A stretch of DNA of 64,000 bases from an uncultured Chloroflexia bacterium (GCA_963793875.1 CAWCBS010000007.1:23489-87488); one strand, 5' to 3'. Positions 1-15,811 are shown, numbered from the stretch's first letter. Notes: a model not told the origin generated them from the letters alone. A program made the numbers and translations.

Positions 1-22
1 AGGACGGTCACTTGACCTCCCG

Positions 23-589
23 TTAGAGCGCCCGATGATCTGGAGGTGTGGCGTCCTCGCCGAGAGCCACCAGCCTCGTCTCAAGCTCGGGGTGGCCCGC
101 GAATTTGCTCACGAGCTCGGCCGGCCCGCCGATGCACGTCCAGTCGTCGTCCCACAGCGTGGATAAGAGCCAGGAGTGGTCGGCAGGGAACATCAAGTCC
201 GGCAAGGGCCCGTTCCAGAACGGCCCCGGGCCGCTTCGGCGCCAGGTGGCGGCCTGCTCCGCCCCAGCCTCGACGAGCACGTAATGCCACCCCGCGTACA
301 AGGTCACCTTCGGCGCGTCGGGGAAGACGATGTCATTGGCGCCCGTGTCGAGATAACCAAGCCACCACGACTGGTCTGCTGACTGCTCGCCAAGCAGGGC
401 CAGAATGGCCCGGTCATGCCTGTCCCACGCTTCAGCGTCGTGCGGGAGCACCACCGTGGCATAGGCCTCGAACGTGGGCGGGATGGCGGCGGTGATGGTC
501 CGGCCTTCGGATGTTCCGCTGGCGATCCACGCGACCTCGACGTCTGTCCCGATACGCCAGGCACCGTCGTCCCGGCTCCGCCTGACCAT
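23..589 (-). CDS. hypothetical protein (188 aa), no domain recognised
   Basis: Only frame here with normal composition (W/D/L-rich, e.g. ...HSWLLSTLWDDDWTCIGGPAELV...). Overlapping ORFs are Arg/Pro/Ala-rich antisense artefacts. Confidence 0.5.
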   Translation of the reverse strand: MVRRSRDDGAWRIGTDVEVAWIASGTSEGRTITAAIPPTFEAYATVVLPHDAEAWDRHDRAILALLGEQSADQSWWLGYLDTGANDIVFPDAPKVTLYAGWHYVLVEAGAEQAATWRRSGPGPFWNGPLPDLMFPADHSWLLSTLWDDDWTCIGGPAELVSKFAGHPELETRLVALGEDATPPDHRAL

Positions 590-707
590 GCCTCCAGCTT
601 AGATGCTGTCAGCCATGGCCCGAGAATCCCTGTAGCCTTCCCGGAGAGTCCATCGCGTCCGATCGGATCGAAGCGCCTGATACAAGTGAGGTTGCATAAC
701 ACTGAGC

Positions 708-928
708 TGGCCCAGACTGACCACGCCAGGGTGCCCCCGGGGTGTCCGGTCGTCGGGCCAGATGCTGCTAGCAGAACCCCGCGGGGAACGGCCAGAGACC
801 TTTCTATCCCAACCACTTCCTAACGTGGCAGGCGGCCGGTGCTTTGCACCTTCATTCACGAGGCAGATGGTGCAAATGAATTCGCAAGGTACTATGCGAT
901 CGCCTAATCAATAGACTGGCCGCCTTCT
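708..928 (+). repeat. Copy A (221 bp) of the tRNA-Arg-associated repeat; ends ...GGCCGCCTTCTA
   Basis: Aligns over its full length with 8593-8812 (copy D). Its core aligns with 4281-4395 (B) and 5401-5547 (C). Shared strings include CTTTCTATCCCA, CTTCCTAACGTGGCAGGCGGCCG, GAATTCGC and GGTACTA. Confidence 0.9.
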
Positions 929-929
929 A

Positions 930-2586
930 GCCTCGATCTTTCAGTAAGGGCCGCCGACAGCGGTGGATGACGGATCGGAGGCGATCACCGGCAGGTGTTG
1001 GAAGAGCCAGGCCTGCCGATGACGAGGATCGGCGTGGTCGGGTGCGGCCACGACGGGACGGCAGCGGTGTGGGCGGAGAACATAGCCGCTGGTGGGGTCG
1101 CCGAAGAGCTCGGCCGGGGAAGCGTGCGGAGTCGGGGTCAGGCGGCGGGGAGGGAGCGCATTCGCTCGAACGCTGAACCGAGCAGCCCCGCCCAGGGCCA
1201 GCAGCGCTGCCGACGCAGGTACAGCCGTCGCCCACTCCGGGCCAGGCGGGCAGCGACGTGGAAGAGGCAGTAGCGGAGGCGCTTCGGTTCCCAGTGGGCG
1301 GCCTCGCCGGTGAGGCAGAGGCGCTGTGTCCAGGCGACCAGGTCCTGGGCGACCAGCACCAGTTCGAGCCAGACCTCGTTGGCCGCGAAGTCGCGGAAGG
1401 GCAGGTTGCGCAGCCCCGATGCCTTGCCGCAGCGGATGCGGTCCTCGACCCGGGCGTGGGCGCGGTGACGCGCCTCCAGGGCCGCCAGATCGGGGTCAGC
1501 CTGGTCGGTGATGAACACCTGAAAGCGAAACCCGTCGTGGTCGGTGAAGGAGAGTTGAGCGCCGGGATGGGGCCGCTCCCGCCGGCAGATGGCCCGAGTG
1601 GCGGTGGGCCAGGCGCTGAGGTCGAGATCGTGCAGCTCGCCGACGGCGGCACCGTCACGGGGGTCGCCGTCCTGGGTGATGGCGGGCACCCAGGCGTCCG
1701 GGGAAAGCGCAAGCACGGCCTCCCGAACCGGCTCGGTGAGGTCGAAGCCGACGGAGAAGAGCAGGCCGCGCTCCCGCAGGGCATCGAGGAAGTCGTGGGT
1801 GGCACCGGCGGAGTCCGCACGGGCCAGCATCGGCGGATCGTTCTCAGCCCGCGGCGGGAGCTGCCCGAGCGCGGCGTCGAGGACCCGGATGTGATCGCCG
1901 GCGTGGTTGGCGCCGGCATTGCCGGGACGGAGCAGCCCGGCGACGATCTCGTCGGTCTCGCCGACGCTGCAGAGCAGCGGATGGAAGCCGAAGCCGCGCT
2001 TGTACGTCCCGGCGGCGCCCTGCTTGTCCGAGTGGGCGGTGACCAGGGTGGCGTCGAAGTCGAGGGTGACGTGATCCGGACGGACGCCGTGCTTCCAAGC
2101 GTGAGCCCGAGCCTGGGCCCGGGCCTGGCGAACCGGAGCGAGGTCGAAGTCGGTGGCGAGTGCATCGATCACCCGCCAAGCGGTGGGGACCGAGGCCACT
2201 TCCCCGAAGAGGTTCGGCTGGTTGTGCAGGACCGTCAGGTCGGAGAGGCAGTCCCCACCGTCGGCGATGCTGACAGCGAGGTCACGCAGCACCTCACCGG
2301 GGTCATGAGCGCGCCGACGCTGCTTCAGGCAGGCGAGCCCCCGGGACAGCGCCGCGGTCAGCCCGACCCGGTCGGCCAACTCGACCAGAAGGTAGCTGCC
2401 GGCGTGAGAAACCACCCCGTCGCCGTCCGTCGTCACCACCGGTCGCGGCCGCTTGGTACCCTTCATCTTGAAAGTGCCCCCCTCTTCGGGATCCTCGAGC
2501 GTTCAGCAACCCGAGTATCCCTTGTCAGGTGGGGCACTTTCTCGTTCCCGCCCCAGCGGGCCAGCTACCTCAATGAAAGATCGAGG
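930..2586 (-). mobile_element. IS1380-family insertion sequence (1657 bp) with 4-bp target duplication CTAG
   Basis: Terminal inverted repeats CCTCGATCTTTCA (930-942) and TGAAAGATCGAGG (2574-2586). CTAG is present at 926-929 and 2587-2590. A single transposase ORF lies inside. Confidence 0.85.
1138..2466 (-). CDS. IS1380 family transposase (442 aa)
   Basis: Family-typical blocks such as ...DATLVTAHSDKQGAAGTYKRGFGFHPLL... and ...FRFQVFITDQ.... The ORF is flanked by the IRs above. Confidence 0.85.
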   Translation of the reverse strand: MKGTKRPRPVVTTDGDGVVSHAGSYLLVELADRVGLTAALSRGLACLKQRRRAHDPGEVLRDLAVSIADGGDCLSDLTVLHNQPNLFGEVASVPTAWRVIDALATDFDLAPVRQARAQARAHAWKHGVRPDHVTLDFDATLVTAHSDKQGAAGTYKRGFGFHPLLCSVGETDEIVAGLLRPGNAGANHAGDHIRVLDAALGQLPPRAENDPPMLARADSAGATHDFLDALRERGLLFSVGFDLTEPVREAVLALSPDAWVPAITQDGDPRDGAAVGELHDLDLSAWPTATRAICRRERPHPGAQLSFTDHDGFRFQVFITDQADPDLAALEARHRAHARVEDRIRCGKASGLRNLPFRDFAANEVWLELVLVAQDLVAWTQRLCLTGEAAHWEPKRLRYCLFHVAARLARSGRRLYLRRQRCWPWAGLLGSAFERMRSLPAA

Positions 2587-3354
2587 CTAGGCAGGCACCA
2601 CCTCCACCAATTGAACATCAGCGAAGCACCAGCGCAGCCAGAAGGTGCTCTCCACATCCCAGTGCATCGTCGCCAGACTACGATCGTGATCCGCTAGGCA
2701 AAGACCCTGCACCGCTGCGATTGCGGTGGCTGTCACGTGCACCCCCTCGTAATCCTGCGATGCGGCGATCCAGTTGGGAAAGATAAGGCCATCCAGCTCC
2801 GTCGCATAAGAATGGACAAAGTCCATCCAGTCAGATGCCGTCGCCACCTCACGTATCCTTGCCCTCGAATCCACTCCGACGGACCAAACATGCCAGGGTC
2901 GCGAGTCGATGCCATACAGATCGAGATACACTCGCCACATCCCTTGGGCCCCGAGAACGCCGCTGCAAGTGAACAATCCGACCCGGAAGGGCTTCGTGCT
3001 CGGCTTCCCCGCCAGTTTGCCCACAGGGGTGAAGTGCTCCTCTGCCAAGATGGGAACTCCGGGTGCCAAATGAGCGGGTCTCCTCCGGGAGATCCAGTAC
3101 TGGCCATCACGCCACAAGGGGCCGGTGACCACATGGGGAGATGAACGTCGGAGGTGGCGCAGAAGACGGCATCGCGCTAGACATTGGTCGGCATCGGCGG
3201 GCGCCACCGTTAGCATGTCAGAGGGGTTCCGGGGGTCCGCGCTCGTCGCACCGACCATGACGTCGATAAACCGCGCTATGTCTCCGTTGGGGGGGGGCAC
3301 ACCCTGGGCGTCGAATGCCTCCATCCTGCGCAGGAGGTAAGCGATGCCGTCCAC
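2587..3354 (-). CDS. hypothetical protein (255 aa)
   Basis: Long ORF with balanced composition in a locally lower-GC segment. Its stop codon (CTA on the + strand, 2587-2589) lies inside the IS1380 target duplication. No domain recognised. Confidence 0.55.
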   Translation of the reverse strand: MDGIAYLLRRMEAFDAQGVPPPNGDIARFIDVMVGATSADPRNPSDMLTVAPADADQCLARCRLLRHLRRSSPHVVTGPLWRDGQYWISRRRPAHLAPGVPILAEEHFTPVGKLAGKPSTKPFRVGLFTCSGVLGAQGMWRVYLDLYGIDSRPWHVWSVGVDSRARIREVATASDWMDFVHSYATELDGLIFPNWIAASQDYEGVHVTATAIAAVQGLCLADHDRSLATMHWDVESTFWLRWCFADVQLVEVVPA

Positions 3355-3393
3355 GGGCTTACCCGCCCCCCAATGACTACTTACTCTGTCAAC

Positions 3394-3984
3394 TCAGCAC
3401 TGAATGAAGATGTAGGGGCTTTGAACCTCGGCAAACTGCGGATTCGGTTCGTATCCAGGCGGGAACGTGTTGGTTATCGAAGTGAACGCGTCCCACACAT
3501 CCGCAGTTGGTGTCGGGCAAGGCGCCACGGCAGTACCATTCTTGTTCGCGGTACCGTAGCTTGTTGACGGCTGGGGTCCGTACAACGTGCCAGCTGTCTC
3601 GTCGTACAGGTACATGTCAATGGCGATGTTCGCCATGGGAGCTGAACACGTCTCTCGAAACAGGGCATCGACAGTATCAGGCACGTGATAGGACGCATGG
3701 GGGTACATCTGTTGCGCGTTGCACGTGATGATGTTATCAGCCGCGGCGAGCCCTGTCGCGGGGCTCGTCGATCGTGTTGCGGTGAAGGTGAGCGCGGAGG
3801 GAAGTCCCTGGGGTATCAGCGGGTCTCCGGGGGCCAGCGGGGATATCGACGCACCAGTCGACGGAGGGGCAGCTGCAGCCGGGGCTGCCAAGACGACGCC
3901 CGTGAATGAGAGCAACAACAGCATGCCCAAGAGTGCCTGGCTCAGTTTCGCGCGCTGTCTCACCATGGTCCGTCTCCTTGGCAC
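3394..3984 (-). CDS. secreted hypothetical protein (196 aa) with N-terminal signal peptide
   Basis: N-terminus ...RQRAKLSQALLGMLLLLSFTGVVLAAPAAAAP is signal-peptide-like. The mature part is Cys-containing and Thr/Pro/Tyr-rich. The segment is low-GC (63/120 G+C by hand count at 3361-3480). Confidence 0.6.
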   Translation of the reverse strand: MPRRRTMVRQRAKLSQALLGMLLLLSFTGVVLAAPAAAAPPSTGASISPLAPGDPLIPQGLPSALTFTATRSTSPATGLAAADNIITCNAQQMYPHASYHVPDTVDALFRETCSAPMANIAIDMYLYDETAGTLYGPQPSTSYGTANKNGTAVAPCPTPTADVWDAFTSITNTFPPGYEPNPQFAEVQSPYIFIQC

Positions 3985-4056
3985 GGTTCCCTGTCGCTGA
4001 CATGGGGAAGCGACAGTCTAGGTGGCGGCGTCCAGCCGAAACCGGAGCGGACCTAA

Positions 4057-4221
4057 AGTACCACAGCTTACCTAACGTGTCTAGTAGGGGCCAGCGTCTA
4101 CAGCGTCTATCTCGGCTTCGAGGACGCGATGACCGGCCGCTGGGTGGGGGACGACCAAACGATCTGGACCACGACCGACGGCGGGAACACCTGGACGGCG
4201 CGGACGTTCGCGATCGGGTAG
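4057..4221 (+). pseudogene. C-terminal fragment of a BNR/Asp-box repeat protein (about 40 codons, no start)
   Basis: The frame ending at TAG 4219-4221 reads ...VYSVYLGFEDAMTGRWVGDDQTIWTTTDGGNTWTARTFAIG*. TTDGGNTW fits the Asp-box S/T-x-D-x-G-x-T-W. An in-frame TAA lies at 4054-4056 and no initiator follows it. Confidence 0.4.
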
Positions 4222-4280
4222 GTGGCGATCCCCAGGCACCGGCAGCGGTTGCCCTAGCCCGAAAGCGCCCGCGCAGAGCC

Positions 4281-4395
4281 CGGAAACCTTTCTATCCCAA
4301 CCACTTCCTAACGTGGCAGGCGGCCGCTGCTTTGCAGCTTCATTGACGAGGCAGATGATGTACCTGAATTCGCGAGGTACTAAGCGACCGCCTTC
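4281..4395 (+). repeat. Copy B (core only, about 115 bp) of the tRNA-Arg-associated repeat; ends ...GACCGCCTTC
   Basis: Aligns with the cores of A, C and D. Relative to C it lacks AATCAATAGGCCAGCCGCCT, the stretch between two CCGCCT direct repeats. Similarity stops after CTTC at 4395. Confidence 0.85.
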
Positions 4396-5295
4396 GACGT
4401 GCTGGGCGCCGTGACCTCGACCGGCGGTGTCACCTCTCTTGCCTACGGGTTCGTGCGGGCGGCGAGCAACGGCTGGGGCGACGTGCTGACCATCGGCGCG
4501 TTCGCGGTCGGCATGGTGCTGCTCGGCCTGTTCATCACCATCGAGAGGCGCGCCGCGGAGCCGATCACACCGCTGCAACTCTTTGCCGACCGCAGCCGCA
4601 ACGCCTCGTACGTGGCGCGGCTCTTCCTCGTGGCCGGCATGTTCGGGATGTTCTTCTTCCTCACGCAGTTCCTCCAGGACGTGCTCGGGTACGACCCACT
4701 CCAGACCGGCCTGGCCTTCCTGCCCTTCAGCGTGGCGCTCTTCGTCATGTCCCAGCTCAGCGCGCGGCGGTTGATCGAGCGCTTCGGCGGCAAGCCGCTG
4801 ATGGTGGCGGGCATCAGCCTCTCGACCCTCGCGATGCTCCTCATGACGCAGCTGTCGGCATCCAGCACCTATCTCTTCGTGCTGATCCCTGTGCTGCTGT
4901 TCGGGACCGGCAACGGGCTCGCGTTCGTGCCTCTGACGAGCGCCTCCCTGGCCGGGGTGCGCCGGGGGGACGCCGGCGCGGCGTCGGGGCTGGTCAACGT
5001 GATGCAGCAGATGGGCGGTGCGCTGGGTCTCGCGGTGCTGGTGTCGGTGTTCGGCTCGGCCGGCCACGTGATCGCGGGTCAGTCGGCGGCAAACGCGCGG
5101 GCCGCGTTCGTGGTCGGCGCAGACCACGCTTTCATCGCTTCCACGCTGTTCGTCGGTGCGACGGTGCTCGTACTGGCGGTGGCGATTCGCGGGCGGCGCG
5201 CGACCGCCCGCGCCGCCGCGGCCGCTGTTGTCGAGCCGGAGTGGGTGCGCGAGCTGGGTCCTGCTGCGGCGGTGCCGGAGGCCGCTGAGGCCTGA
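4396..5295 (+). pseudogene. 5'-truncated MFS (EmrB/QacA-type) transporter, C-terminal about 300 aa only
   Basis: The translation is a run of TM helices typical of the C-terminal half of 14-TMS drug:H+ antiporters (...LFLVAGMFGMFFFLTQFLQDVLGYDPLQTGLAFLP...GTGNGLAFVPLT...). Coding begins directly at the copy B junction and no N-terminal half lies upstream. Confidence 0.65.
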
Positions 5296-5400
5296 TCGCT
5301 GCCGATGGGCGGCTGGCCCGGCCAACCGGCAGAGCCCGGGGGTAGGATCGGGTGGTGGCGACGATCCTCGTCTACCTTGTGGCCGGGCTGGTCGCCCTCT

Positions 5401-5547
5401 GGGGACGGCCAGAAACCTTTCTATCCCATCTACTTCCTAACGTGGCAGGCGGCCGGTGCTTTGCAGCTTCATTGGCGAGGCAGATGGTGCATCTGAATTC
5501 GCGAGGTACTAAGCAACCGCCTAATCAATAGGCCAGCCGCCTTCTAA
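5401..5547 (+). repeat. Copy C of the tRNA-Arg-associated repeat, continuous with a tRNA 3' half
   Basis: Near-identical to copy D over the core (5416-5547 vs 8681-8812). Its upstream part differs from that of A and D. Confidence 0.9.
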
Positions 5548-5583
5548 GCGCGCAGGTCGCAGGTTCGAGTCCTGCAGGGGGTA
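5541..5583 (+). tRNA. partial tRNA-Arg(UCU): anticodon loop to 3' end only (not a functional gene)
   Basis: Parts read in order: loop CTTCTAA, 3' anticodon stem GCGCG, variable CAGGTC, T-arm GCAGG-TTCGAGT-CCTGC, acceptor AGGGGGT and discriminator A. Upstream bases GCCGC pair only 3/5 with GCGCG. No D-arm or RCCCCCT acceptor strand is present. Confidence 0.8.
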
Positions 5584-5812
5584 GTGCTCCGGTGTATGGA
5601 TCCGCATTCCAGACACTGCCATCGAGGCCGTGAAGATCCCGGAGGTGTCGTCAGCATCCACCTTGGGCGACGCAGTTGGGGTCCCCGAGAAGTCGCCTGA
5701 TAGCGGCGTCGGCCGTTGGGCGGCCAGGCACGGGCTGCTGAGTGACCACGGCCTCATTCATCGCTATGAGATTACCGATCGGCCACCCTGGGCCGGGGTC
5801 GCGTGCGCTACG

Positions 5813-6157
5813 TCAAGCAGCCTTGCGAGGTGGCCTCGCCGCAACCTGCAGACGCACTCCGACTGCGGCTGCGAACCGCGCCACGGTGGAGATACGGGCG
5901 TCCAGCGCTCCGCCCTCCATCCGGGCCACCGCGGACTCCGAGGTCCCCATCCGAGCCGCTACGGCTGCGCGGCTCAGCCCCGCCGCCTTCCGCGCCGCCT
6001 TGAGTCGGGTCATGATCGCCAGCCGCTCCTCGGCAGCAGCCAGGGCAACCGGAAACTCCGGGTCCGTCGCCGACCAGTCGGCGATCAGAGCCTCGAGGTC
6101 GTCGCGCTCGTCGTCGTTGCGCATGATCTCATTCCTACCTAATTGAGCATACCTCAT
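5813..6157 (-). CDS. XRE-family HTH antitoxin (HigA-like), 114 aa
   Basis: C-terminal HTH ...KAARKAAGLSRAAVAARMGTSESAVARMEGG.... It lies immediately downstream of a RelE/HigB-like remnant on the same strand. Confidence 0.7.
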   Translation of the reverse strand: MRYAQLGRNEIMRNDDERDDLEALIADWSATDPEFPVALAAAEERLAIMTRLKAARKAAGLSRAAVAARMGTSESAVARMEGGALDARISTVARFAAAVGVRLQVAARPPRKAA

Positions 6158-6166
6158 CTGGTCTGC

Positions 6167-6421
6167 TCACCCTTGCTGGTCACGCGCCCGCCACTCGGCC
6201 AGGCGCCGCTCGGCCAGCCGGCTCGCCTCCGGCGGGGTCCGCTGCGTCTTCTTGTGCAGGGCCTCCAGGGCGAGCAGGACCCGCCCCCGCCCCTCCTGCG
6301 CGAAGAGCACCCGGAAGCTCTGGCGATCACCCTCCCCCCGCACCTCGTGGATCTCCCCCGGAGGTGGCGAGCTGCGGTCACGCCCTCCCGCACCACCCTG
6401 GCGAAGGCAAGTTAGTGAGAG
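6167..6421 (-). pseudogene. N-terminally truncated RelE/HigB (Gp49-like) toxin remnant
   Basis: The frame ending at TGA (6167-6169) reads ...GEIHEVRGEGDRQSFRVLFAQEGRGRVLLALEALHKKTQRTPPEASRLAERRLAEWRARDQQG*, which matches the family C-terminal core (ELR...yRvlf...vlL..f.KKtqktP). An in-frame stop lies at 6422-6424 and no start codon follows it. Confidence 0.6.
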
Positions 6422-6471
6422 TCATTCACGCTCGCGTGCTAAGGTTGAATAAGCGACCGAGTTGTTCAAGG

Positions 6472-7782
6472 ATGACGCTGATGCCCGAGTACGTCAATCG
6501 GATCTGGGAGCCGCCGAGTGAGACCGGGGCGATCCTGCCCCGTCGGGACCGAGTGAGCGTTCGGTTCCGCGCGTTCGTCCCGGACCCAATTGCGGATCTG
6601 GACGTGCGGACCTCCGCGGAGACCGGAGGGGCGCTCGAGGCAGCGGAAGAGGCGATCCGCCGGCTGGACGGGCAAGCTCGGCAGGTGGCGCCGCTGGAGG
6701 CGCTGTCACGCCTTCTCCTCCGCGCCGAGGGCATCAGCTCGTCGCGCATCGAGGGCTTGGTCGTCGGGCACCGGCAGCTTGCCGAGGCTCTCTTCGACCC
6801 GGTACATTCGCGCGCGGTGGCGCGCGACGTGGTCGGGAACGTTCTGGCCATCGGGGCGGCGATCGATATCGGGGCGGGAGCTGCTCCATTCACGCCGGAG
6901 GTGCTGCTGAGCATCCACGGGACGCTGCTGGGTGCGGGCGCGAGCGGGGGTGGGCGCTTCCGCACGGTGCAGAACTGGATCGGGTCGGCGACGTCGGTGT
7001 CGCCGCGTACGGCGGAGTTCATCCCGCCACCGGAGGGCGAAGTGCCGCGGCTCGTGTCGGACCTGTGTGCGTTCCTGGCTCGGCGCGACGTCTCGCCGCT
7101 GGCCCAGGCGGCGATCGCGCACGCGCAGTTCGAGACGATCCACCCGTTCGAGGATGGGAACGGGAGGGTGGGCAGGGCCCTGATCCACGCGGTGCTGCAG
7201 CGCCGGCGCGTGGTGGAGCGCCAGGTCCCCCCGCTGAGCATCGTGCTCGCGGCTAACCCGCGGACCTACATCGGCGGGCTGACGAGCTTCCGGGAGGGCG
7301 ATCGCGAGGCGTGGCTCGGCATAGCCGCGCGAACGGCGCTGGTTGCCTGCAGAGGCACGGAGCGGTTCCTCTCGGCGGTGAGCGACTTGCAGGTCGTGTG
7401 GCTGGAGCGGGCGGGGCTACCGCGGCGCGATTCGAGTGCACGGCGGCTCATTGAGCTGCTGCCGGGGATCCCGGTGCTTGATGTGCGGCTGGCAGCTGCG
7501 GAGCTGGGCGTGTCGTTCCAGTCAGCCAACGAGGCGGTGTCCCGGCTGGAGGCTGGCGGGGTCCTGCGTCGGCACGAGGTCGGCGCCCAGCGTGACCGGC
7601 GCTGGAGCGCGCCAGAACTCTTCGAGCTGTTGGATAGCTTCCAGTGGGAGACGAGCGGCCCTGCTGTCGAGCTGGACGGCGTGGGGGAGCATCGGCCGTC
7701 TCCGCCGGGGAGCCACACGGGGCGCTGGCGTGTGAGGGGTGGGCGGGCCGGGGCGGAGGGGCACGGCTCCGCGCACCAGTGA
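6472..7782 (+). CDS. Fic/DOC family protein with C-terminal winged-helix region
   Basis: Fic motif HPFEDGNGRVGRALIH is present. I place the start at MTLMPEYVN (6472) rather than the ORF-track 6364, which overlaps the toxin remnant. Confidence 0.8.
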   Translation: MTLMPEYVNRIWEPPSETGAILPRRDRVSVRFRAFVPDPIADLDVRTSAETGGALEAAEEAIRRLDGQARQVAPLEALSRLLLRAEGISSSRIEGLVVGHRQLAEALFDPVHSRAVARDVVGNVLAIGAAIDIGAGAAPFTPEVLLSIHGTLLGAGASGGGRFRTVQNWIGSATSVSPRTAEFIPPPEGEVPRLVSDLCAFLARRDVSPLAQAAIAHAQFETIHPFEDGNGRVGRALIHAVLQRRRVVERQVPPLSIVLAANPRTYIGGLTSFREGDREAWLGIAARTALVACRGTERFLSAVSDLQVVWLERAGLPRRDSSARRLIELLPGIPVLDVRLAAAELGVSFQSANEAVSRLEAGGVLRRHEVGAQRDRRWSAPELFELLDSFQWETSGPAVELDGVGEHRPSPPGSHTGRWRVRGGRAGAEGHGSAHQ

Positions 7783-7792
7783 TGGCTACCGT

Positions 7793-8062
7793 ATGCCCCT
7801 CGAGGTTGGGATCGGCCGTGACGATCTCGTCTGGCCGGCGTTGTTCCGAACTCGCCAGATCGCCTTGGGCGACGTGCAGCAACTCCGCCGCACTCGCTGG
7901 CCTCAGGGGTTCGGCGTCCTAGTGCTCGCAGGAGGCGAGCGCATGCTGGTGCGAAAGCGCAAGGATTTCGTGGAGTTCGCGGTGGAGTTGGGTCGGCTCG
8001 TCCCCACTTTGCGGATCTCCGCCTGGCTCCCTCTCCGCAGGAAAGTTGAAGAGCGGACATGA
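7793..8062 (+). CDS. small hypothetical protein (89 aa)
   Basis: Balanced composition (MPLEVGIGRDDLVWPALFRTRQIALGDVQQL...). No domain recognised. The start choice is uncertain. Confidence 0.3.
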   Translation: MPLEVGIGRDDLVWPALFRTRQIALGDVQQLRRTRWPQGFGVLVLAGGERMLVRKRKDFVEFAVELGRLVPTLRISAWLPLRRKVEERT

Positions 8063-8592
8063 GAACCGAGATGTCCAGCCTTGAAGTGGCGGCGACAGTA
8101 CCCGGGCCTGGGCCAAGGTGACCTCGCCATGCCGGGTGCTCCTTGCGCCGTCCCTCCCGGCGGACAGAAAGCTCAGGCGCTTTCGCGGCCGTCTCGGGGT
8201 TGAGCGAGCACGTCCGCGTAAGTAGCCGGAGCGGAGATCATGCCCAGCGGTCGCGTCTCGGATCTCCGCCGAGTGCTAGACACTCACGGCAAAGGCGTCC
8301 ACTGCCTCTCAAGCGGCGCCGGCCGCGCCTTCCACAGAGGGTCCGCGGCCGGAGGAGGCGGCCCACCCCCCGATAGTGGATGAGGCCATCGTCGGGGTTC
8401 GCGAGCATCTCCCGGCCCCCGAAGCCGATGAATGCCACCCATGGCTGAGCTGGAACGGGCACCTCTGGTTGGTCGGGGTTCGCCCCGGATTCAGGCACCG
8501 ATACAGCGTACCGCCGGACCCTCCCCCGTCTGCCTCAAGCACCGCGCAGGGATGCCGTCGAGCTCCTCGAGGTAGCTTCAGCCATGCTCGCG

Positions 8593-8812
8593 TGGCCCAG
8601 GCTGACCACGCCAGAGGGTCACCGGGGTTCCCGGTCGTCAGGCCAATGCTGCCAGCAGAACTACGCGGGGACCGCTCGAGAACTTTCTATCCCATCTACT
8701 TCCTAACGTGGCAGGCGGCCGGTGCTTTGCAGCTTCATTGGCGAGGCAGATGGTGCATCTGAATTCGCGAGGTACTAAGCAACCGCCTAATCAATAGACC
8801 AGCCGCCTTCTA
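8593..8812 (+). repeat. Copy D (220 bp) of the tRNA-Arg-associated repeat, split from its tRNA 3' half by an IS
   Basis: Full-length alignment with copy A. The core is near-identical to C. It ends ...CAGCCGCCTTCTA at the IS30 junction. Confidence 0.9.
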
Positions 8813-8994
8813 ACAGGGGCCGGTTTCAATGTCGACGGTCACGCAATGAGGCCACTCACGGTCAGGTGATGAGGCCACTTGCGGTCACCTAATGGAGCCA
8901 CTCGCGGTCACCGAATGAGGCCACCCTCCTGACCTCATCAGACCGCCCGGTGCCACAGCGACGATGGCCGGACCGAAAGCTCAAGGAGGGAGCG

Positions 8995-10539
8995 ATGGCC
9001 GGCAGGAGATTCGAGGTGGCAGATGTGGCAGCAGTGCTCCAGCACTGGCAGGCCGGACGCAGCCGGCGGCAGCTGGCCCGCAGCTTCGGCATGGGGAGGA
9101 ACCGGGTCGACCGGATCGTGGGGGTGGCCGAGGCGGCGGGGCTGACCCCGGGTGGCCCGCCGCTCAGTCGGCCGGAGTGGGAGCGGCGAGTACCCGAGCT
9201 GTTCGCGGAGCGGGTGGCCCCGGCCGCGGCACCGCCGACCCAGGAGCTGGTGCGGTTCCATGCGGCGATCGTCGAGGGTCTGGCGGCGAGCACGGTGACC
9301 ACGGTGTGGCAGCGGTTGTGCGACGAGCAGGGGCTGACCGTGAGCGTGTCGACCTTCCGCCGCTACGTGCGCCGCCACATCCGGGGAATGAGCCCGGAGG
9401 ACGTGACGGTGCCCAAGGAGGTGACGCCGCCGGGCGAGGTGGCCGAGGTTGATTACGGCCTGCTGGGGCGGTGGGAGGACCGGCTGAACGAGAGGACGCG
9501 CAAGGTGTGGGGCTTCGTGATGGTCCTGCCCTTCAGCCGGATGACCTTCGTGTGGCCGGTGCTGATCTGCGACCAGGGTGCGTGGGTGGCGGCGCACGTC
9601 GCCGCCTTCCGCTTCTTCGGGGCGGCGCCGCGGCAGATCCGGGTCGACAACCTGAAGACGGGGGTGCTCCGACCTGACGTGTACGACCCGCTGGTGAACC
9701 GGTCCTATGCGGAGTTGGCCGAGCACTACGGCGTGCTCCTCGACCCCTGCCGGGTGAGGAAGCCGAAGGACAAGCCACGGGTGGAGCGGGCCATGCCCTA
9801 CGCCCGGGACAGCTTCTGGAGCGGGCGCGAGTTCGCCATGGTGCCGGCGATGCGCGAGGCGGGGGCGGAGTGGAGCCGGGGCACCGCGGCCAAGCGGCCC
9901 CACGGGCTGCTGCCCGGGACCGTCGGCGAGATCTTCCAGGCGGTGGAGCGGCCGGCCATGCTGGGTCTGCCGGCGGAGCCCTTCGAGCTCGCCCACTGGG
10001 CCACGGCCACAGTGCATCCCGACTGTCGGATCCAGGTGCAGCGCCGCTTCTTCTCGGTGCCCTGGCCCCATGTCGGCAAGCGGCTGGAGGTCCGAATCGG
10101 CGAGCGGGTGGCCCGCATCTACGACGGCACCACCCTGGTCAAGACCCACGCCCTGCAGCCGGGTGAGCGCAACTACGTCGACCACGCTGACTATCCAGAG
10201 CAGAAGGTCGCCTTCCTGCAGCGAACGCCGAGCTGGTGCCGGCGCCGCGCTGTCGAGCTCGGCCCGGCGGTACAGGCCCTGGTCGACGACCTCCTGGCCG
10301 GGCCCCATCCGCTGGCCTGTCTGCGCCAGGCCCAGGGCATCCTCCGGCTCGCCGACACCCACGAGCCGGGGCGGCTGAATGCCGCATGCCAGCGCGCCCT
10401 GGTCGCCGACGGCAGCCTGCGCACGGTGCGCAACATCCTCACCCGTGACCAGCAAGTCGACGAGGACGAGCCGGCCGTCAGCACCGCCGGCGCTTTCCTC
10501 CACGGCGAGCAGCAGCTGCTCGAAGGGACACGGTGGTGA
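8995..10539 (+). CDS. istA: IS21 family transposase IstA
   Basis: N-terminal HTH plus a DDE region (...EVDYGLLGRWEDRLNERTRKVWGFVMVLPFSRMTFV...). AAGGAGGG lies 5 nt upstream of ATG 8995. Confidence 0.9.
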   Translation: MAGRRFEVADVAAVLQHWQAGRSRRQLARSFGMGRNRVDRIVGVAEAAGLTPGGPPLSRPEWERRVPELFAERVAPAAAPPTQELVRFHAAIVEGLAASTVTTVWQRLCDEQGLTVSVSTFRRYVRRHIRGMSPEDVTVPKEVTPPGEVAEVDYGLLGRWEDRLNERTRKVWGFVMVLPFSRMTFVWPVLICDQGAWVAAHVAAFRFFGAAPRQIRVDNLKTGVLRPDVYDPLVNRSYAELAEHYGVLLDPCRVRKPKDKPRVERAMPYARDSFWSGREFAMVPAMREAGAEWSRGTAAKRPHGLLPGTVGEIFQAVERPAMLGLPAEPFELAHWATATVHPDCRIQVQRRFFSVPWPHVGKRLEVRIGERVARIYDGTTLVKTHALQPGERNYVDHADYPEQKVAFLQRTPSWCRRRAVELGPAVQALVDDLLAGPHPLACLRQAQGILRLADTHEPGRLNAACQRALVADGSLRTVRNILTRDQQVDEDEPAVSTAGAFLHGEQQLLEGTRW

Positions 10540-11456
10540 GGCCGGCAGAGCTGCAGAGCAAGCTCAAGACCCTCAAGCTCGGCGGCATGCTGCTCACCCT
10601 GGAGATGCGGCGGGCGCAGGCCGAGGACCAGCGGCTTGGCCACGTCGAGTTCCTGGCGTTGCTGCTCGACGACGAGATCGATCGGCGGCAGTCGAAGATG
10701 CTGGCCCAGCGGCTCCACCGAGCCCGCTTCGAAGAGCCGAAGACCCTCGAGGAGTTCGACTTCTCCTTCAACCCCCAGATCCCCGCCGAGCAGCTGCGCA
10801 ACCTAGCCACCTGCGGCTTTGTCGAGCGTCACGAGTCGGTGCTGCTCTGTGGGCCGGTCGGGGTCGGCAAGACCCACGCGGCGCAGGCGTTGGGGCACGC
10901 CGCCTGCCGTGCCGGGTACACCGTGCTCTTCACCAAGACCTCGGCCTTCCTGCGCGACCTGGCCGGAGGCCGGGCCGACGGCAGTTGGGAGCCTCGGCTG
11001 CGCCGCTACCTGCAGAGTGACGTGCTCATCCTCGACGACTTCGGGATGCGCGAGTTCACCCCCTCCCAGGCCGAGGACCTCTATGAGCTGATCTGCCAGC
11101 GCTTCCGGGTCGGCAGCCTGCTGGTCACCAGCAACCGCGCCCCCAAGGACTGGTACCCACTCTTCCCCAACCCCGTCCTCGCCGAGAGCGCCCTCGACCG
11201 CTTGGTCAACAGCGCCCACCACGTGATCCTGCGAGGCCGCAGCTATCGGCCTTTCCGGCGGCCGGACGGAGGCGGTTACCCAGCCGTCAACGACCCCGAT
11301 GACACCCCAGCCGGCCAGCCCGGCCGAGCGCTCCAGGCGCGACCCGCTGAGACGCCCCCGGAGGCCAGCGACGACCTCGACCAGATGTCGGATACCCCCC
11401 TTCCGGAGGCCGCCACCCGACCACACAGGAGGGCCGCCAACCCACTACCATCCTGA
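10533..11456 (+). CDS. istB: IS21 family ATP-binding helper IstB
   Basis: Walker A GPVGVGKTH and Walker B VLILDDFG are present. The gene overlaps the end of istA. Confidence 0.9.
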   Translation: MVRPAELQSKLKTLKLGGMLLTLEMRRAQAEDQRLGHVEFLALLLDDEIDRRQSKMLAQRLHRARFEEPKTLEEFDFSFNPQIPAEQLRNLATCGFVERHESVLLCGPVGVGKTHAAQALGHAACRAGYTVLFTKTSAFLRDLAGGRADGSWEPRLRRYLQSDVLILDDFGMREFTPSQAEDLYELICQRFRVGSLLVTSNRAPKDWYPLFPNPVLAESALDRLVNSAHHVILRGRSYRPFRRPDGGGYPAVNDPDDTPAGQPGRALQARPAETPPEASDDLDQMSDTPLPEAATRPHRRAANPLPS

Positions 11457-11549
11457 CCAGAAGACGGGGCACCGGGTGGCCTCATCGCGTGACCGTGAGT
11501 GGCTCCATCACGTGACCGCGGGTGGCCTCATCGCGTGGCGTTCGACATT

Positions 11550-12548
11550 TCAACCGGTCGTTGCAACAGGGCTCTCCAAGAGCTGGCTGAAGGCCTCGGC
11601 TGGCGTTCGCCACCCGAGTGTACGGCGAGGCCGGCCGTTCAGCCGGGCCGCGATGTCCTGCAGGGTGGCTGGGTCGCTCGGCATCACGGAAGCGCTGGGC
11701 AGGTACTGGCGGAGAAGGCCGTTGGTGTTCTCGTTGGTCCCTCGTTCCCATGGGGATCGGGGATGAGCGAAGTACACGGCGACACCGGTGTCAATGGTGA
11801 ACTGCCGATGCTGAGCCAGCTCAGTCCCCTGATCCCAGGTGAGCGACTGCCGGAGCGAAGTCGGCAGAGTGACGATGGTCTCGGCGATGGCCAGGCGAGT
11901 GGGCTCGGCGGCGCGTCCTCGGGGTAGCGGGACCAACATGGTGAAGCGCGTCGTTCGTTCCACGAGGGTCCCCACCGCGGAGTGCGCCCCCTTGCCAACC
12001 ATGAGATCGCCTTCCCAGTGCCCGGGAACCTTGCGGTCGGCGACCTCGGCGGGGCGCTCGTCGATGCTCACCATGTCGGCGATCCGATGGCGTCCGTAGT
12101 GGCCGCGGCGCTCCAGGCCGCGATGCTCCTTACCCTGCCTCAGGCCGGCCAGGAGCGAGCGCTTCAGCTCACCCTTCGGCAGAAGGTAGAACCAGGTGTA
12201 GATCGTCTCGTGTGACACGTGCATCGCCCCGTCGCTGGGGTTCTCCAGCTTGATCCTCTCAGCCACTTGCTGCGGTGACCAGCCCCTGGCCATGCCGGCG
12301 CACACCTGGGCCCGCAGCGGCGTCCCCTCCGCCAACTTCCGCACCTTAGGACGCCGTCGTCGCCAGCGGGCAAGCTCCGCGGCCCTGACGGCACGGTAGC
12401 CCGACCTCCCTCCGCCAGCTCGAACCTCGCGACTCACCGTCGCCGGGTTCCGGCCCAGCTGGCGAGCCAGCTGACGCATCGAGATGTCGCCGGACATCCC
12501 CAGCGAGATCTCCTCTCGCTCCTGCAGGGTCAACCTCGTTCTGAGCAC
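11550..12548 (-). CDS. IS30 family transposase (332 aa)
   Basis: Family blocks HWEGDL, TWDQGTE, YFAHPRSPWERGTNENTNGLLRQYLP and LNGRPRRTLGWRTPAE. Confidence 0.9.
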   Translation of the reverse strand: MLRTRLTLQEREEISLGMSGDISMRQLARQLGRNPATVSREVRAGGGRSGYRAVRAAELARWRRRRPKVRKLAEGTPLRAQVCAGMARGWSPQQVAERIKLENPSDGAMHVSHETIYTWFYLLPKGELKRSLLAGLRQGKEHRGLERRGHYGRHRIADMVSIDERPAEVADRKVPGHWEGDLMVGKGAHSAVGTLVERTTRFTMLVPLPRGRAAEPTRLAIAETIVTLPTSLRQSLTWDQGTELAQHRQFTIDTGVAVYFAHPRSPWERGTNENTNGLLRQYLPSASVMPSDPATLQDIAARLNGRPRRTLGWRTPAEAFSQLLESPVATTG

Positions 12549-12622
12549 GTGGCACCTCTGATGGCGGCTGTTCGCCAGATCAGATCACCCCGTTGCGTTC
12601 ACCAGTTGAAACCGGCCCCTGT

Positions 12623-12661
12623 TAAGCGCGCAGCCCGCAGGTTCGCGTCCAGCAGGGGGTA
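12623..12661 (+). tRNA. partial, degenerate tRNA-Arg(UCU) 3' half (completes copy D)
   Basis: TAAGCGCGCAGCCCGCAGGTTCGCGTCCAGCAGGGGGTA aligns with 5545-5583. It has an A:A mismatch in the T-stem (GCAGG/CCAGC). Confidence 0.7.
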
Positions 12662-12891
12662 CTGGCCGGTCTCAATTCCGGCACGGCGGCGAGTTACGTC
12701 CCGCATCGCGGTGGGAATTGAGGCCCTCTCCGCGTGCTGACCGGGTACACAGAGAAGGCCACCGTGAGGTTCTCTTCGGACTGCTCAACCTTCAAGGAGA
12801 TTCACGAATGGCCCACCCCCACAGGCTACGCGACGTCCTCACGGAGGACAATGGATGCAGCTTCCGTCGGAGCCCCTCAAGGAGGCCTGAA

Positions 12892-14617: not shown

Positions 14618-15811
14618 TCACGAGTACCTCTCCACCAGGGTGTCCTGCACGCTGCCGTTGTAGTCATTGCCCACCGCCAGGCAGAACTGAGAGCTGCCAC
14701 TGACCGTGCAGCTGACCCCGGGGAGCAGATCGTACGGGCTCGTCGGGTCCACGGTGGTGACGATGCTCCACGTCGCGCCGTTCCACGCCTCGTTCAGGGT
14801 GCTGACGGTGTCCGGCGTCGTGTTCGAGCTGTATCCCGAGGCCATGCAGAAGGCGGACCCCGTGCACGAGACCGACGTCAGCCACGTGCTCTGGCCGCTG
14901 ATGTTGGGGGTGCTGAGCACGCTCCAGCTGCTCCCGTTCCACTCCTCGGCGAGGCTGTTCTCGTTGGGCCCACCGGAATACGAGGTGCCCACCGCCATGC
15001 AGAAGGTGGTGCTGCGGCAGCGCACCGCTGCGGGGTTGAGGTCGCTGGTGGTGTCGTCGACGATGCTCCAGGACGAGCCGTTCCACCGGACGATGAACTG
15101 GTCAAGGCCCGTGTAACCGACCGCCATGCAGAAGCTGGCGCTGGTGCAGCTCACGCCGGAGAGCTGCATGTCGTCGGTGCTGCTGGGCGCCGGCACCGTC
15201 TCCTGGCTCCAGGAGCTGCCGTTCCACTTCAGGCTGAAGGGATAGGTCGGCTCAATCGTGTAGGACCCGACCGCGATGCAGAACGTGGTCGCCTTGCAGC
15301 TGACGCCGTAGAGGTCGACCGTGGCGCCCGGTCCGAAGATGTGGGGCACGGGCATGGAGACCAGCGCGGTGCCGTTCCACTTGTCGAGGATCATGTGATC
15401 GGCGCCGCCCTTGTAGTAGCGACCCACGGCGACGCAGAAGGTGGTGGAGACGCAGCTGACGGCGTTGAGCTCGGCTTCCGTGTACCCGGCGCTGGGTGCC
15501 GCGGTGACGACGGACATCGTGGTGCCGTTCCATCGCTCGCCGAAGGTCCGGTCGTTACCGGAGGTTTCTTAGATGCCGACCCCGAGACAGAAGCTGGCAC
15601 TGGTGCAGCTCACCCCCGAGAGGCCGGAGAAGGTGGAGGGGCTGGGGGAGCTCACCACGCTCCAGTTGGGATCCGCGGCCATGGCTCCCGGCCCGCTGAG
15701 GAGGACTGCGGCCAGCACGGCCACGGCGATGCTTGCGGTTCGGAGGCCACGCAGGCCGAGCAGCCTCGCCGCCCGCCTGTCTGTGGAGGCAACGGTCGGT
15801 CGGTCTTCCAT
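14618..15811 (-). pseudogene. secreted seven-repeat Cys-pair (beta-propeller-like) protein interrupted by an in-frame TAA
   Basis: ORFs 15569-15811 (signal peptide plus repeat 1) and 14618-15517 are in the same frame. Read-through gives ...SFCLGVGI*ETSGNDRTFGERWNGTTMSVV..., with the stop at 15566-15568. There are seven repeats of L-x-G-V-S-C-x4-6-C-x-A-V-G ... W-N-G-x-x-W. Confidence 0.75.

Follow-up and report, generated by a model that had tools for sequence, protein, structure and literature searches.

The window analysed in this study is a stretch of 64,000 nucleotides from an uncultured Chloroflexia bacterium (GCA_963793875.1 CAWCBS010000007.1:23489-87488; G+C content 71%), and its first 12.7 kb contain four copies (A to D) of a repeat that is linked to a tRNA-Arg(UCU) gene. 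These copies most probably derive from serial site-specific integration into the tRNA-Arg(UCU) gene of a Dormibacterota peat-soil bacterium, followed by erosion through insertion sequences (ISs) and deletions. In this case, the 12-kb stretch would represent the distal part of a genomic-island array. A similar view had been put forward in the initial annotation, in which the copies were considered as arm-plus-core junctions left by serial tyrosine-integrase integration into this tRNA gene, and the comparison with related contigs and loci (labelled L001-L064) has strengthened it. Arrays of the repeat in relatives start at an intact tRNA-Arg(UCU) gene, the flank that follows this tRNA in L016 follows a repeat unit in L020, a recombinase gene is located beside the same tRNA in sister strains, and a decayed copy of this recombinase gene abuts a unit.

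The repeat unit and its tRNA-derived end

A repeat finder detected a 147-nt family with four co-oriented copies at 784-930, 4272-4418, 5401-5547 and 8667-8813, whose cores are 88.5-96.4% identical in pairwise comparison. The T-arm and acceptor string of the tRNA occurs twice in the window versus zero occurrences expected by chance; this count and the core identities indicate that the four repeats are real and not due to chance. Both the four co-oriented copies (approximately 708-930, 4272-4395, 5401-5547 and 8593-8812) and the similarity of A and D further upstream had been noticed initially and were recovered here, the latter as about 85 nt common to both; the repeat finder reported a 53-nt match between 708-760 and 8593-8645 (85% identical). 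It also identified a fifth tRNA-like piece at 12618-12664. A stretch of 48 nt, corresponding to tRNA positions 27-73, is repeated at 5536-5583 and, split by an IS, at approximately 8765-8812 plus 12623-12661. Direct repeats identical to the 3' portion of the tRNA hence bound the inserted DNA, as is typical for tRNA-targeted islands. The units in the window consist of the following parts:

708 to 790 (+): distal ("class I") arm of unit A; positions 708-760 are a 53-nt palindrome able to form a hairpin
791 to 930 (+): core of unit A, with arm, anticodon-stem 5' strand and loop up to TTCTA (nhmmer, model columns 2-140); the tRNA 3' part is missing
4279 to 4393 (+): unit B, truncated at model column 116 in the first CCGCCT, 26 nt before the anticodon loop (profile search)
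5408 to 5535 (+): arm of unit C, P-arm-like and non-coding, with the conserved blocks GTGGCAGGCGG and GAGGCAGATGG, and with ATCTGAATTC at 5491-5500
5536 to 5583 (+): core of unit C, tRNA-Arg(UCU) positions 27-73, identical to the intact gene in L016
8593 to 8812 (+): unit D, with distal arm (8593-8676) and core (8677-8812), ending in ...CCTTCTA (repeat finder and profile search)
12623 to 12661 (+): rest of the tRNA part of unit D ("E"), degenerate, TAAGCGCGCAG...GGGGGTA

Copy C is an intact unit, and its core covers the anticodon stem-loop, the variable loop, the T arm, the acceptor 3' strand and the discriminator base. E shows two mismatches in a 25-nt T-arm/acceptor probe and more in the variable region; it is the outermost tRNA part in the window and adjoins ordinary-looking genes (RibD_C and onward). 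A profile search revealed no units in the window beyond 12.7 kb, and ARAGORN detected no intact tRNA or tmRNA gene in the 64 kb.

Public genomes and JGI metagenomes were scanned with a 20-21-mer from the arm, which yielded two metagenome-assembled genomes (MAGs; one Dormibacterota and one labelled Chloroflexia) and 31 peat or bog contigs. A subsequent profile search of Dormibacterota MAGs and peat-bog metagenome contigs mapped more than 80 full or partial units, and 62 T-arm copies were found in related loci. This search of related genomes had been advised in the initial annotation, and the units it revealed are clustered and co-oriented, with an almost invariant tRNA part.

The full unit of approximately 182 nt is composed of a 135-nt conserved arm and the 3'-terminal 48 nt of tRNA-Arg(UCU), which begin in the anticodon stem and end with the discriminator base. 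Its 5' edge is sharp and located near GAAACCTTTCTATCCCA, while its 3' end is formed by the discriminator base and a short tail with two alleles, GTGCTCCGG or CTGG.... Hardly any variation is seen in columns 130-170 when 42 distinct units are aligned, and this invariant block corresponds to tRNA positions 27-73. Conservation of the arm is blocky, with 74-98% per 10-column block (0.98 for GAGGCAGATG, 0.74 for columns 61-70). The intact tRNA-Arg(UCU) of L016 reads GCCCCCTTAGCTCAGATGGATAGAGCA-GCCGC-CTTCTAA-GCGCGC-AGGTC-GCAGGTTCGAGTCCTGC-AGGGGGT-A. The GCCGC in front of the loop had initially been dismissed as a poor pairing partner; the intact genes of L016 and L052-L060 carry the same bases, which are the genuine 5' strand of an anticodon stem that folds into 5 bp with one bulged C.

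A further distal arm of about 90 nt with a hairpin is present upstream of 13 of 25 units, including A and D, and the palindrome at 708-760 folds with -31.6 kcal/mol (z = -2.25). The unit as a whole lacks overall dyad symmetry. A coding function was rejected on the basis of six-frame translation, which revealed no conserved open reading frame (ORF) in the unit and stops in every frame in most copies.

Several variants of the unit were observed. A diverged unit without the first 17 columns and a tRNA-Gly(UCC) gene, on opposite strands, are separated by only about 45 nt in L021 (804-1019), L025 (43-260) and L031 (59-340). The diverged units of L021 and L025 break off at column 113-115, and a full unit follows after 30 nt. 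The unit in L020 (1846-2027) has the anticodon loop CTCCTAA, i.e., the anticodon CCU and not UCU, within an otherwise unchanged tRNA part. In L022 (7474-7719) and L028 (3586-3836), a full unit is followed about 25 nt later by a second, degenerate tRNA 3' part with the acceptor AGCGGGT, and ARAGORN calls this pair in L028 an odd "tRNA-???". The 188-amino acid gene that neighbours unit A is found in L002 (8560-8685) in an unrelated chromosomal context, and similarity to the window begins there 19 nt inward of the outer (5') edge of the distal-arm hairpin, which is at window position 708.

Arrays at the tRNA-Arg(UCU) locus

Co-oriented units with a spacing of 0.55-4.3 kb form arrays in L009 (three units), L016 (five units after the tRNA), L022, L031, L035 and L038. 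The array starts in L016 and in nine of ten contigs with the same GDPD gene with the order GDPD, tRNA-His (-) and intact tRNA-Arg(UCU) (+). This tRNA-Arg(UCU) at the head of the array is intact and co-oriented with the units in L016 and L052-L060, and an intact gene is likewise present in L051, L061, L062 and L064. The flank CTGG(T/C)(G/T)GGTC(C/G)CGAGCC(C/T)GGACGTCC... is found behind the intact tRNA in L016 and L052-L060, and behind a unit in L020. When occupied and unoccupied sites are compared, the presence of the same flank after the intact tRNA and after a displaced unit is what integration at the tRNA predicts. The outermost tRNA parts are degenerate (E in the window; L022:7679; L028:3790) or have other acceptor ends (ATGGGGC-A-CCA in L018/L032; AGGGGGC in L020). 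Leftward extension of the source contig, a further suggestion of the initial annotation, added a fifth unit (Z), which is located 4-8 kb left of the window and broken by IS5, IS110 and IS1182 elements.

Two forms of tRNA-Arg(UCU) occupy the same chromosomal locus, and both fold as cloverleaves. The common form (L016 736-811; L052-L060 ~10996-11071) has a one-base bulge in the anticodon stem, a G1-U72 pair and no encoded CCA, and is called tRNA-Pyl(CUA) by ARAGORN. The form adjacent to the recombinase gene (L051 ~10996-11072; L061 9774-9850) is canonical, with a perfect stem, a G1-C72 pair and CCA.

Proposed formation and erosion of the array

For the formation of the array, the following order of events can be proposed. 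The attachment site (attP) of the incoming element would comprise two arms, the first of approximately 135-230 nt, and between them a copy of tRNA positions 27-73 extended by about 9 nt. Integration would rebuild the tRNA from the element's own copy, and the older tRNA 3' part, now located behind the arm of the newcomer, would be pushed downstream. Each unit of arm and tRNA part would then be a junction, either of the attR type or internal and attP-like. As the enzyme, a 317-amino acid tyrosine recombinase is likely, and the right end of the element that bears it is predicted to comprise a unit-type arm, a variant tRNA part and the flank CTGGTGGGTCCCGAGCC....

Erosion of the islands is directly visible: ISs have hit the two CTAA sites of the unit and a position 9 nt after the tRNA end, and gene halves have been deleted. 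The integrase genes may have been lost by IS-mediated deletions, and erosion would have left small integrase-less cargo segments between well-conserved units.

Causes of the breaks in the copies

Four ISs or IS remnants are located in or next to the units of the window:

931 to 2586 (-): IS1380-family element, with transposase at 1138-2466, terminal inverted repeats CCTCGATCTTTCA... and CTAG at 927-930 and 2587-2590
5593 to 5604 (+): 12 nt left over from the left end of an IS481-like element (TGTATGGATCCG), separated from the tRNA part by 9 nt
8813 to 12622 (-): IS30-family element, with transposase at 11550-12548, 17-bp inverted repeats ACAGGGGCCGGTTTCAA and a 2-bp TA target duplication
8830 to 11547: IS21 nested in the IS30 element, with istA at 8950-10539, istB at 10533-11456 and a 6-bp TTTCAA duplication

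All copies had initially been thought to break within the same 7-nt anticodon loop, and the breaks had been attributed to secondary-site recombination that captured flanking DNA. Neither view could be maintained. Copy A does lose similarity after TTCTA as described, but it stops exactly at the left end of the IS1380 element. In L004 and L005, an identical A-type unit with the adjoining 188-amino acid gene continues with a complete tRNA part, and the sister contig L039 contains the same IS1380 copy and the same orphan-gene flank next to a different far flank. The junction between A and the orphan genes is therefore an IS-associated rearrangement. The flank of A reads CTAG where the unit predicts CTAA, a single-base difference.

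Copy B does not reach the loop, but ends 26 nt upstream of it, in the upstream CCGCCT at model column 116, and the following TTC belongs to an MFS gene. The complete MFS cassette is located between two units in L034, and B is joined to nt 1522 of this cassette with a 2-nt microhomology (GACCGCCT/TCGACG versus GGCCACT/TCGACG). The break of B is thus a plain deletion into the MFS gene.

The statement that C and D run straight into the tRNA 3' half is correct for C, but in D the tRNA part is interrupted by the IS30/IS21 insertion. The unit resumes at 12623, after the IS30 element and its TA duplication, and D and E therefore constitute one complete unit, whose break is a simple IS30 insertion. 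The nested IS21 carries iterated 23-nt repeats CGGTCACNNNATGAGGCCACT at both ends (8836-8924 and 11476-11537) in inverted orientation.

The apparent common break point thus results in part from a misreading and in part from a hot spot for IS insertion. YTAR sites (CTAG, CTAA, TTAG and TTAA) occur 53 times in the 64 kb, 35 of them in the first 13 kb, and each unit contains two CTAA sites. IS1380 copies with 4-bp duplications are found at both CTAA sites (A in the window; L009/L035), IS30-like elements at the loop of D and probably in L025 (assigned from similar terminal sequence alone), and an IS1182/IS110 pair at the loop of unit Z. Members of the IS1380, IS30, IS1182, IS110 and IS5 families are located at or next to the two CTAA sites of the unit (window 927-931 and 8811-8813; L001 14835-19039; L009 127-244; L025 ~430; L035 6142-6209). 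The CTAA sites of the unit lie in dispensable DNA, and the hot spot is explained by the target preference of the ISs in combination with tolerance. As several IS families share rare CTAA sites in a displaced tRNA fragment, they imitate a common recombination break point, which is a trap for interpretations based on sequence alone.

In at least 10 units, the tRNA end is followed at a distance of 8-10 nt by the left end of an IS481-like element, which is truncated in every case. It consists of TGTATGGATCC, followed by iterated CTGAYCCTTGAC motifs and the start of a helix-turn-helix transposase, and was observed besides the window in L016 (5262-5452), L024, L028, L029, L031 (2668-3231), L034 and L035. 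A 9-bp duplication accompanies this end in L013 (GTAGTCCGG) and in L016:12337 (GTGCTCCGG). The sequence TGTATGGATCC... after the tRNA had also been considered as the second arm, but is better read as the IS481-like left end with its 9-bp target duplication. The IS481-like element could be an IS that targets the att site.

Cargo segments and their exchange

The segments between the units carry the following genes:

2587 to 3966 (-): two lower-GC orphan genes of 255 amino acids (2587-3354) and 190 amino acids (3394-3966), the latter with a signal-peptide-like start; no Pfam family matched either of them
4084 to 4221 (+): 3' end of an otherwise lost BNR-repeat protein gene; in L012, L026 and L044, the complete gene is located in front of a unit
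4394 to 5295 (+): 3' part of an MFS transporter gene, corresponding to nt 1522-2535 of the complete L034 cassette
5808 to 6125 (-): decayed HigA-like gene, in the cargo segment 5808-8062
6167 to 6343 (-): truncated HigB/Gp49 gene, with 58 amino acids versus 76 in L043-L045
6481 to 7782 (+): Fic gene, in the cargo segment between units C and D
7793 to 8062 (+): ORF of 89 amino acids, in the cargo segment 5808-8062

The Fic segment of the window is flanked by att-type units on both sides and lacks recombination and transfer genes, which are the hallmarks of a cis-mobilizable element (CIME), and several segments of this type are present in L016, L022, L035 and L038. Decay is visible in the HigB gene, the half MFS gene, the BNR remnant and the fused segment L016.s4. 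Relative to the units, cargo genes are found on both strands. A 383-amino acid protein that recurs beside units had been considered as a recombinase, but turned out to be a lipoprotein.

Across contigs, the segment encoding this lipoprotein has four different right neighbours, and so does the 188-/240-amino acid segment. The Fic segment has five left neighbours (the MFS remnant, a 546-nt segment, an integrase-bearing block, the BNR gene and a 214-amino acid gene), each of which brings a different arm, and the tRNA part rightwards is 99.6% identical. Since the arms follow the left cargo and the post-tRNA flanks follow the right cargo, exchange took place inside the tRNA-identical block. Site-specific recombination explains this exchange, and homologous recombination in the sole perfectly identical 48 nt would explain it as well.

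The candidate recombinase

The window is devoid of an integrase gene, as was already recognized in the initial annotation. Two motif screens revealed no tyrosine- or serine-recombinase motifs in the window or in the array contigs, Pfam detected no integrase among about 40 ORFs, and tblastn with 120 integrases and the L051 recombinase found nothing in the window and only remnants in L018/L032. The integrase is also missing at the array head in nine of ten places, and the segment that adjoins the intact tRNA in L016 and L052 has none.

The best candidate is encoded at the GDPD locus of sister strains. In L051, L061, L062 and L064, the gene for the 317-amino acid tyrosine recombinase starts 153 nt after tRNA-Arg(UCU) and is followed by variable defence cargo, including type I restriction-modification, AAA_21 and Mrr_N. 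A frameshifted and truncated copy (amino acids 26-156, 70-72% identity) is located directly after a unit in L018/L032. In addition, the first 50 nt behind the tRNA of the recombinase loci share homology with DNA to the right of units in L031, L038 and L016. The rare 10-mer ATCTGAATTC of the unit arm is also found in the recombinase loci, each of which (about 8-21 kb; L051, L061 and L064 checked) contains it only once, 11 nt behind the tRNA. The MAG GCA_052325885.1 contains both a recombinase locus and a unit-flanked Fic segment. These similarities suggest that the 317-amino acid recombinase likely acts on the unit arms.

A second family of tyrosine integrases (365-400 amino acids, Phage_int_SAM_3 and Phage_integrase) was found in L043 (1-716), L046, L047 and L050. 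Its genes follow tRNA-Ser(GGA) at a distance of about 190 nt, and this interval contains GAGTCCCAA(N)GAGTCCCAAT repeats. The L043 integrase gene, interrupted by an IS21 and 8 kb to the left of a unit, was considered as a candidate; its closest full-length relatives are those found 190 nt after tRNA-Ser(GGA) and the GAGTCCCAA arm repeats of its family occur beside no unit, and the enzyme was therefore treated as probably unrelated. Scans of IMG/VR with the arm, the tRNA part and the recombinase found no link to phages.

Several observations weigh against serial integration by this recombinase. The 10 kb left of the window, the side on which the initial annotation had proposed to look for an intact tRNA-Arg(UCU) and a recombinase, contain neither a tRNA-Arg gene nor an integrase gene, and no array contig contains an intact integrase gene. 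A single decayed integrase among more than 80 units is unusually little for simple decay to have left. The tRNAs beside the recombinase genes end in a canonical 3' part (GCGGC-CGGTG...GGGGGC-A-CCA) whose variable region is present in no unit, and because of this difference, the recombinase elements and the units could be two families with one target. The DNA compared covers the part of the recombinase-bearing elements next to the tRNA, and a unit arm at their right ends is a prediction. Finally, a recombinase of 317 amino acids, i.e., of Xer size, may lack an arm-binding domain, in which case the conservation of the 135-nt arm would be unexplained. As the crossover position, the T arm would suit the hybrids in L018 and L020 better than the anticodon loop.

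Alternative explanations

One alternative overlaps with serial integration and differs from it in whether the small segments still move. The units would be working recombination sites of small integrase-less cassettes, which are excised as circles and reinserted, either at the tRNA or into further units, via a recombinase encoded elsewhere, similar to CIMEs, pseudo-SCC elements or integron cassettes. The array would then be an active platform for cassettes instead of a collection of remnants. Such mobility would account for the changing neighbours of the lipoprotein, 188-amino acid and Fic segments, with boundaries exactly at the units, for the abundance of units next to almost no integrases, and for the integrase-free segments beside the tRNA in L016 and L052. 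The blocky conservation of the arm, which suggests constraint, and the occurrence of an intact recombinase together with cassettes in one MAG are also in line with it. However, many segments are decayed, the gene orientation relative to the units is mixed, and differing integration histories together with homologous recombination in the 48-nt block could shuffle segments as well. Neither a circular junction nor a precise presence/absence polymorphism of a single cassette was found. Mobile cassettes are thus possible, but doubtful. The small non-autonomous mobile unit that the initial annotation had kept under consideration is nevertheless somewhat strengthened by the shuffling of cassettes between strains.

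In a more specific version, which we regard as rather unlikely, the ~182-nt units are live sites of a tRNA-anchored Dormibacterota cassette system that is mobilised in trans by an Xer-sized tyrosine recombinase. The cassettes may comprise lipoproteins, toxin-antitoxin/Fic genes, regulators and transporters, and the recombinase may reside beside the tRNA in some strains only. The system would function like an integron, with a tRNA fragment and a long conserved arm as its site. Mobilisation of the small segments in trans, if true, would amount to cassette exchange by a system different from integrons, but the evidence presented here does not establish that.

It is very improbable that the unit is a structured RNA with a 3' end mimicking the T arm and acceptor stem of a tRNA, copied together with neighbouring genes, which is a variant of the fused RNA mentioned in the initial annotation. 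The lack of a conserved ORF in the unit would agree with an RNA, RNAalifold pairs CTTCCT (columns 27-32) with the acceptor 3' strand and GGCGG (columns 42-46) with CCGCC (columns 111-115), and several one-sided changes retain G-U pairs on the plus strand. However, compensatory changes are present in none of the 29 predicted pairs (42 distinct units, of low variation), and the percentage of paired bases and the covariation score do not differ from shuffled controls, in which 392 and 383 of 500 shuffles, respectively, reach the observed values. By chance, a pyrimidine run that can pair with AGGGGG should turn up about once per 130 nt (estimate). Rfam cmscan at the gathering threshold gave no hits in the window, ARAGORN called neither a tRNA nor a tmRNA, and no RNA is needed to account for the tRNA-identical block, the intact tRNA at the array head or the adjacent recombinase. 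A dispersed intergenic repeat of the ordinary kind or a miniature inverted-repeat transposable element with a coincidental tRNA-like end is hardly credible and already contradicted: the copies are short, non-coding and numerous and the distal arm contains a palindrome, but 48 nt are identical to a real tRNA-Arg(UCU) gene at array heads, the units are co-oriented and clustered instead of dispersed, with none past 12.7 kb in the window, and they have neither terminal inverted repeats nor target duplications of their own.

Comparison with known systems

Tandem islands that arise by serial integration at tRNA or tmRNA genes are known from the tycheposons of Prochlorococcus (bioRxiv 10.1101/2020.12.28.424599), whose targets include tRNA-Arg(UCU), and from the ssrA islands of Dehalococcoides (PMC3146451). 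As in the arrays described here, partial copies of the target RNA separate the islands, newcomers displace older islands from the intact gene, degraded elements and extra partial tRNAs are present, and bases next to the direct repeat are conserved. In contrast to both systems, the arm comprises 135-230 nt, the segments are mostly 0.5-4 kb long and nearly all lack an integrase. The ssrA islands furthermore use a CcrB-like serine recombinase and a 20-bp repeat (PMC3146451), and tycheposons carry their own recombinase and replication modules (bioRxiv 10.1101/2020.12.28.424599). A description of a comparable system in Dormibacterota was not found in the literature searched.

The concept of CIMEs and their accretion, as in ICESt1/ICESt3, is cited in the work on the ssrA islands (PMC3146451). 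The likeness consists of att-flanked segments without integration or transfer functions, arranged in tandem at one att site. In contrast to CIMEs, the mobility of the segments described here is putative, with indirect support from neighbours that differ between strains, and no conjugative partner was identified.

Integron cassette arrays and the pdif modules of Acinetobacter also contain small cargo modules, often with toxin-antitoxin or orphan genes, that are split by a repeated site; the order of modules varies by strain and ISs target the sites. The arrays described here resemble them in their small modules, repeated recombination site, strain-variable order and IS-targeted sites. In contrast to integrons, they lack both an IntI beside attI and an imperfect palindrome of the attC type, and gene orientation is mixed; the site is a tRNA fragment with an arm, and not a 28-bp Xer site or attC. 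The head of the L016 array is a tRNA gene and not IntI with attI, and the NCBIfam integron-integrase model gave 35.8 bits for P0001 (of the tRNA-Ser-linked family, not L051-type) versus a cut-off of 265.

Thus, the process, tandem accretion at a tRNA gene together with the CIME concept, is a known one, while the lineage is new. The arrays are set apart by the length of the conserved arm, by the very large number of units per integrase and by the host phylum. In an uncultured phylum that is globally common in soil and peat, one tRNA-Arg landing pad would gather defence, toxin and surface-protein genes.

Further observations

Window positions 1-10589 correspond to ENA contig ERZ25039473:contig_4252 (L001); the two are not base-identical, and due to a few small indels their coordinates drift by 1-2 nt along the common 10.6 kb. 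Downstream of the array, at 14618-15517 (-), a 299-amino acid protein is encoded whose only Pfam match is a weak one to DUF6087. It consists of six repeats of approximately 50 amino acids, each with GVSC...FC(M/I)AVG and WNG(S/T)SWS, and contains 12 cysteines. The gene for this repeat protein accounts for the periodic DNA repeats of 129-156 nt (families D2, D3 and D5).

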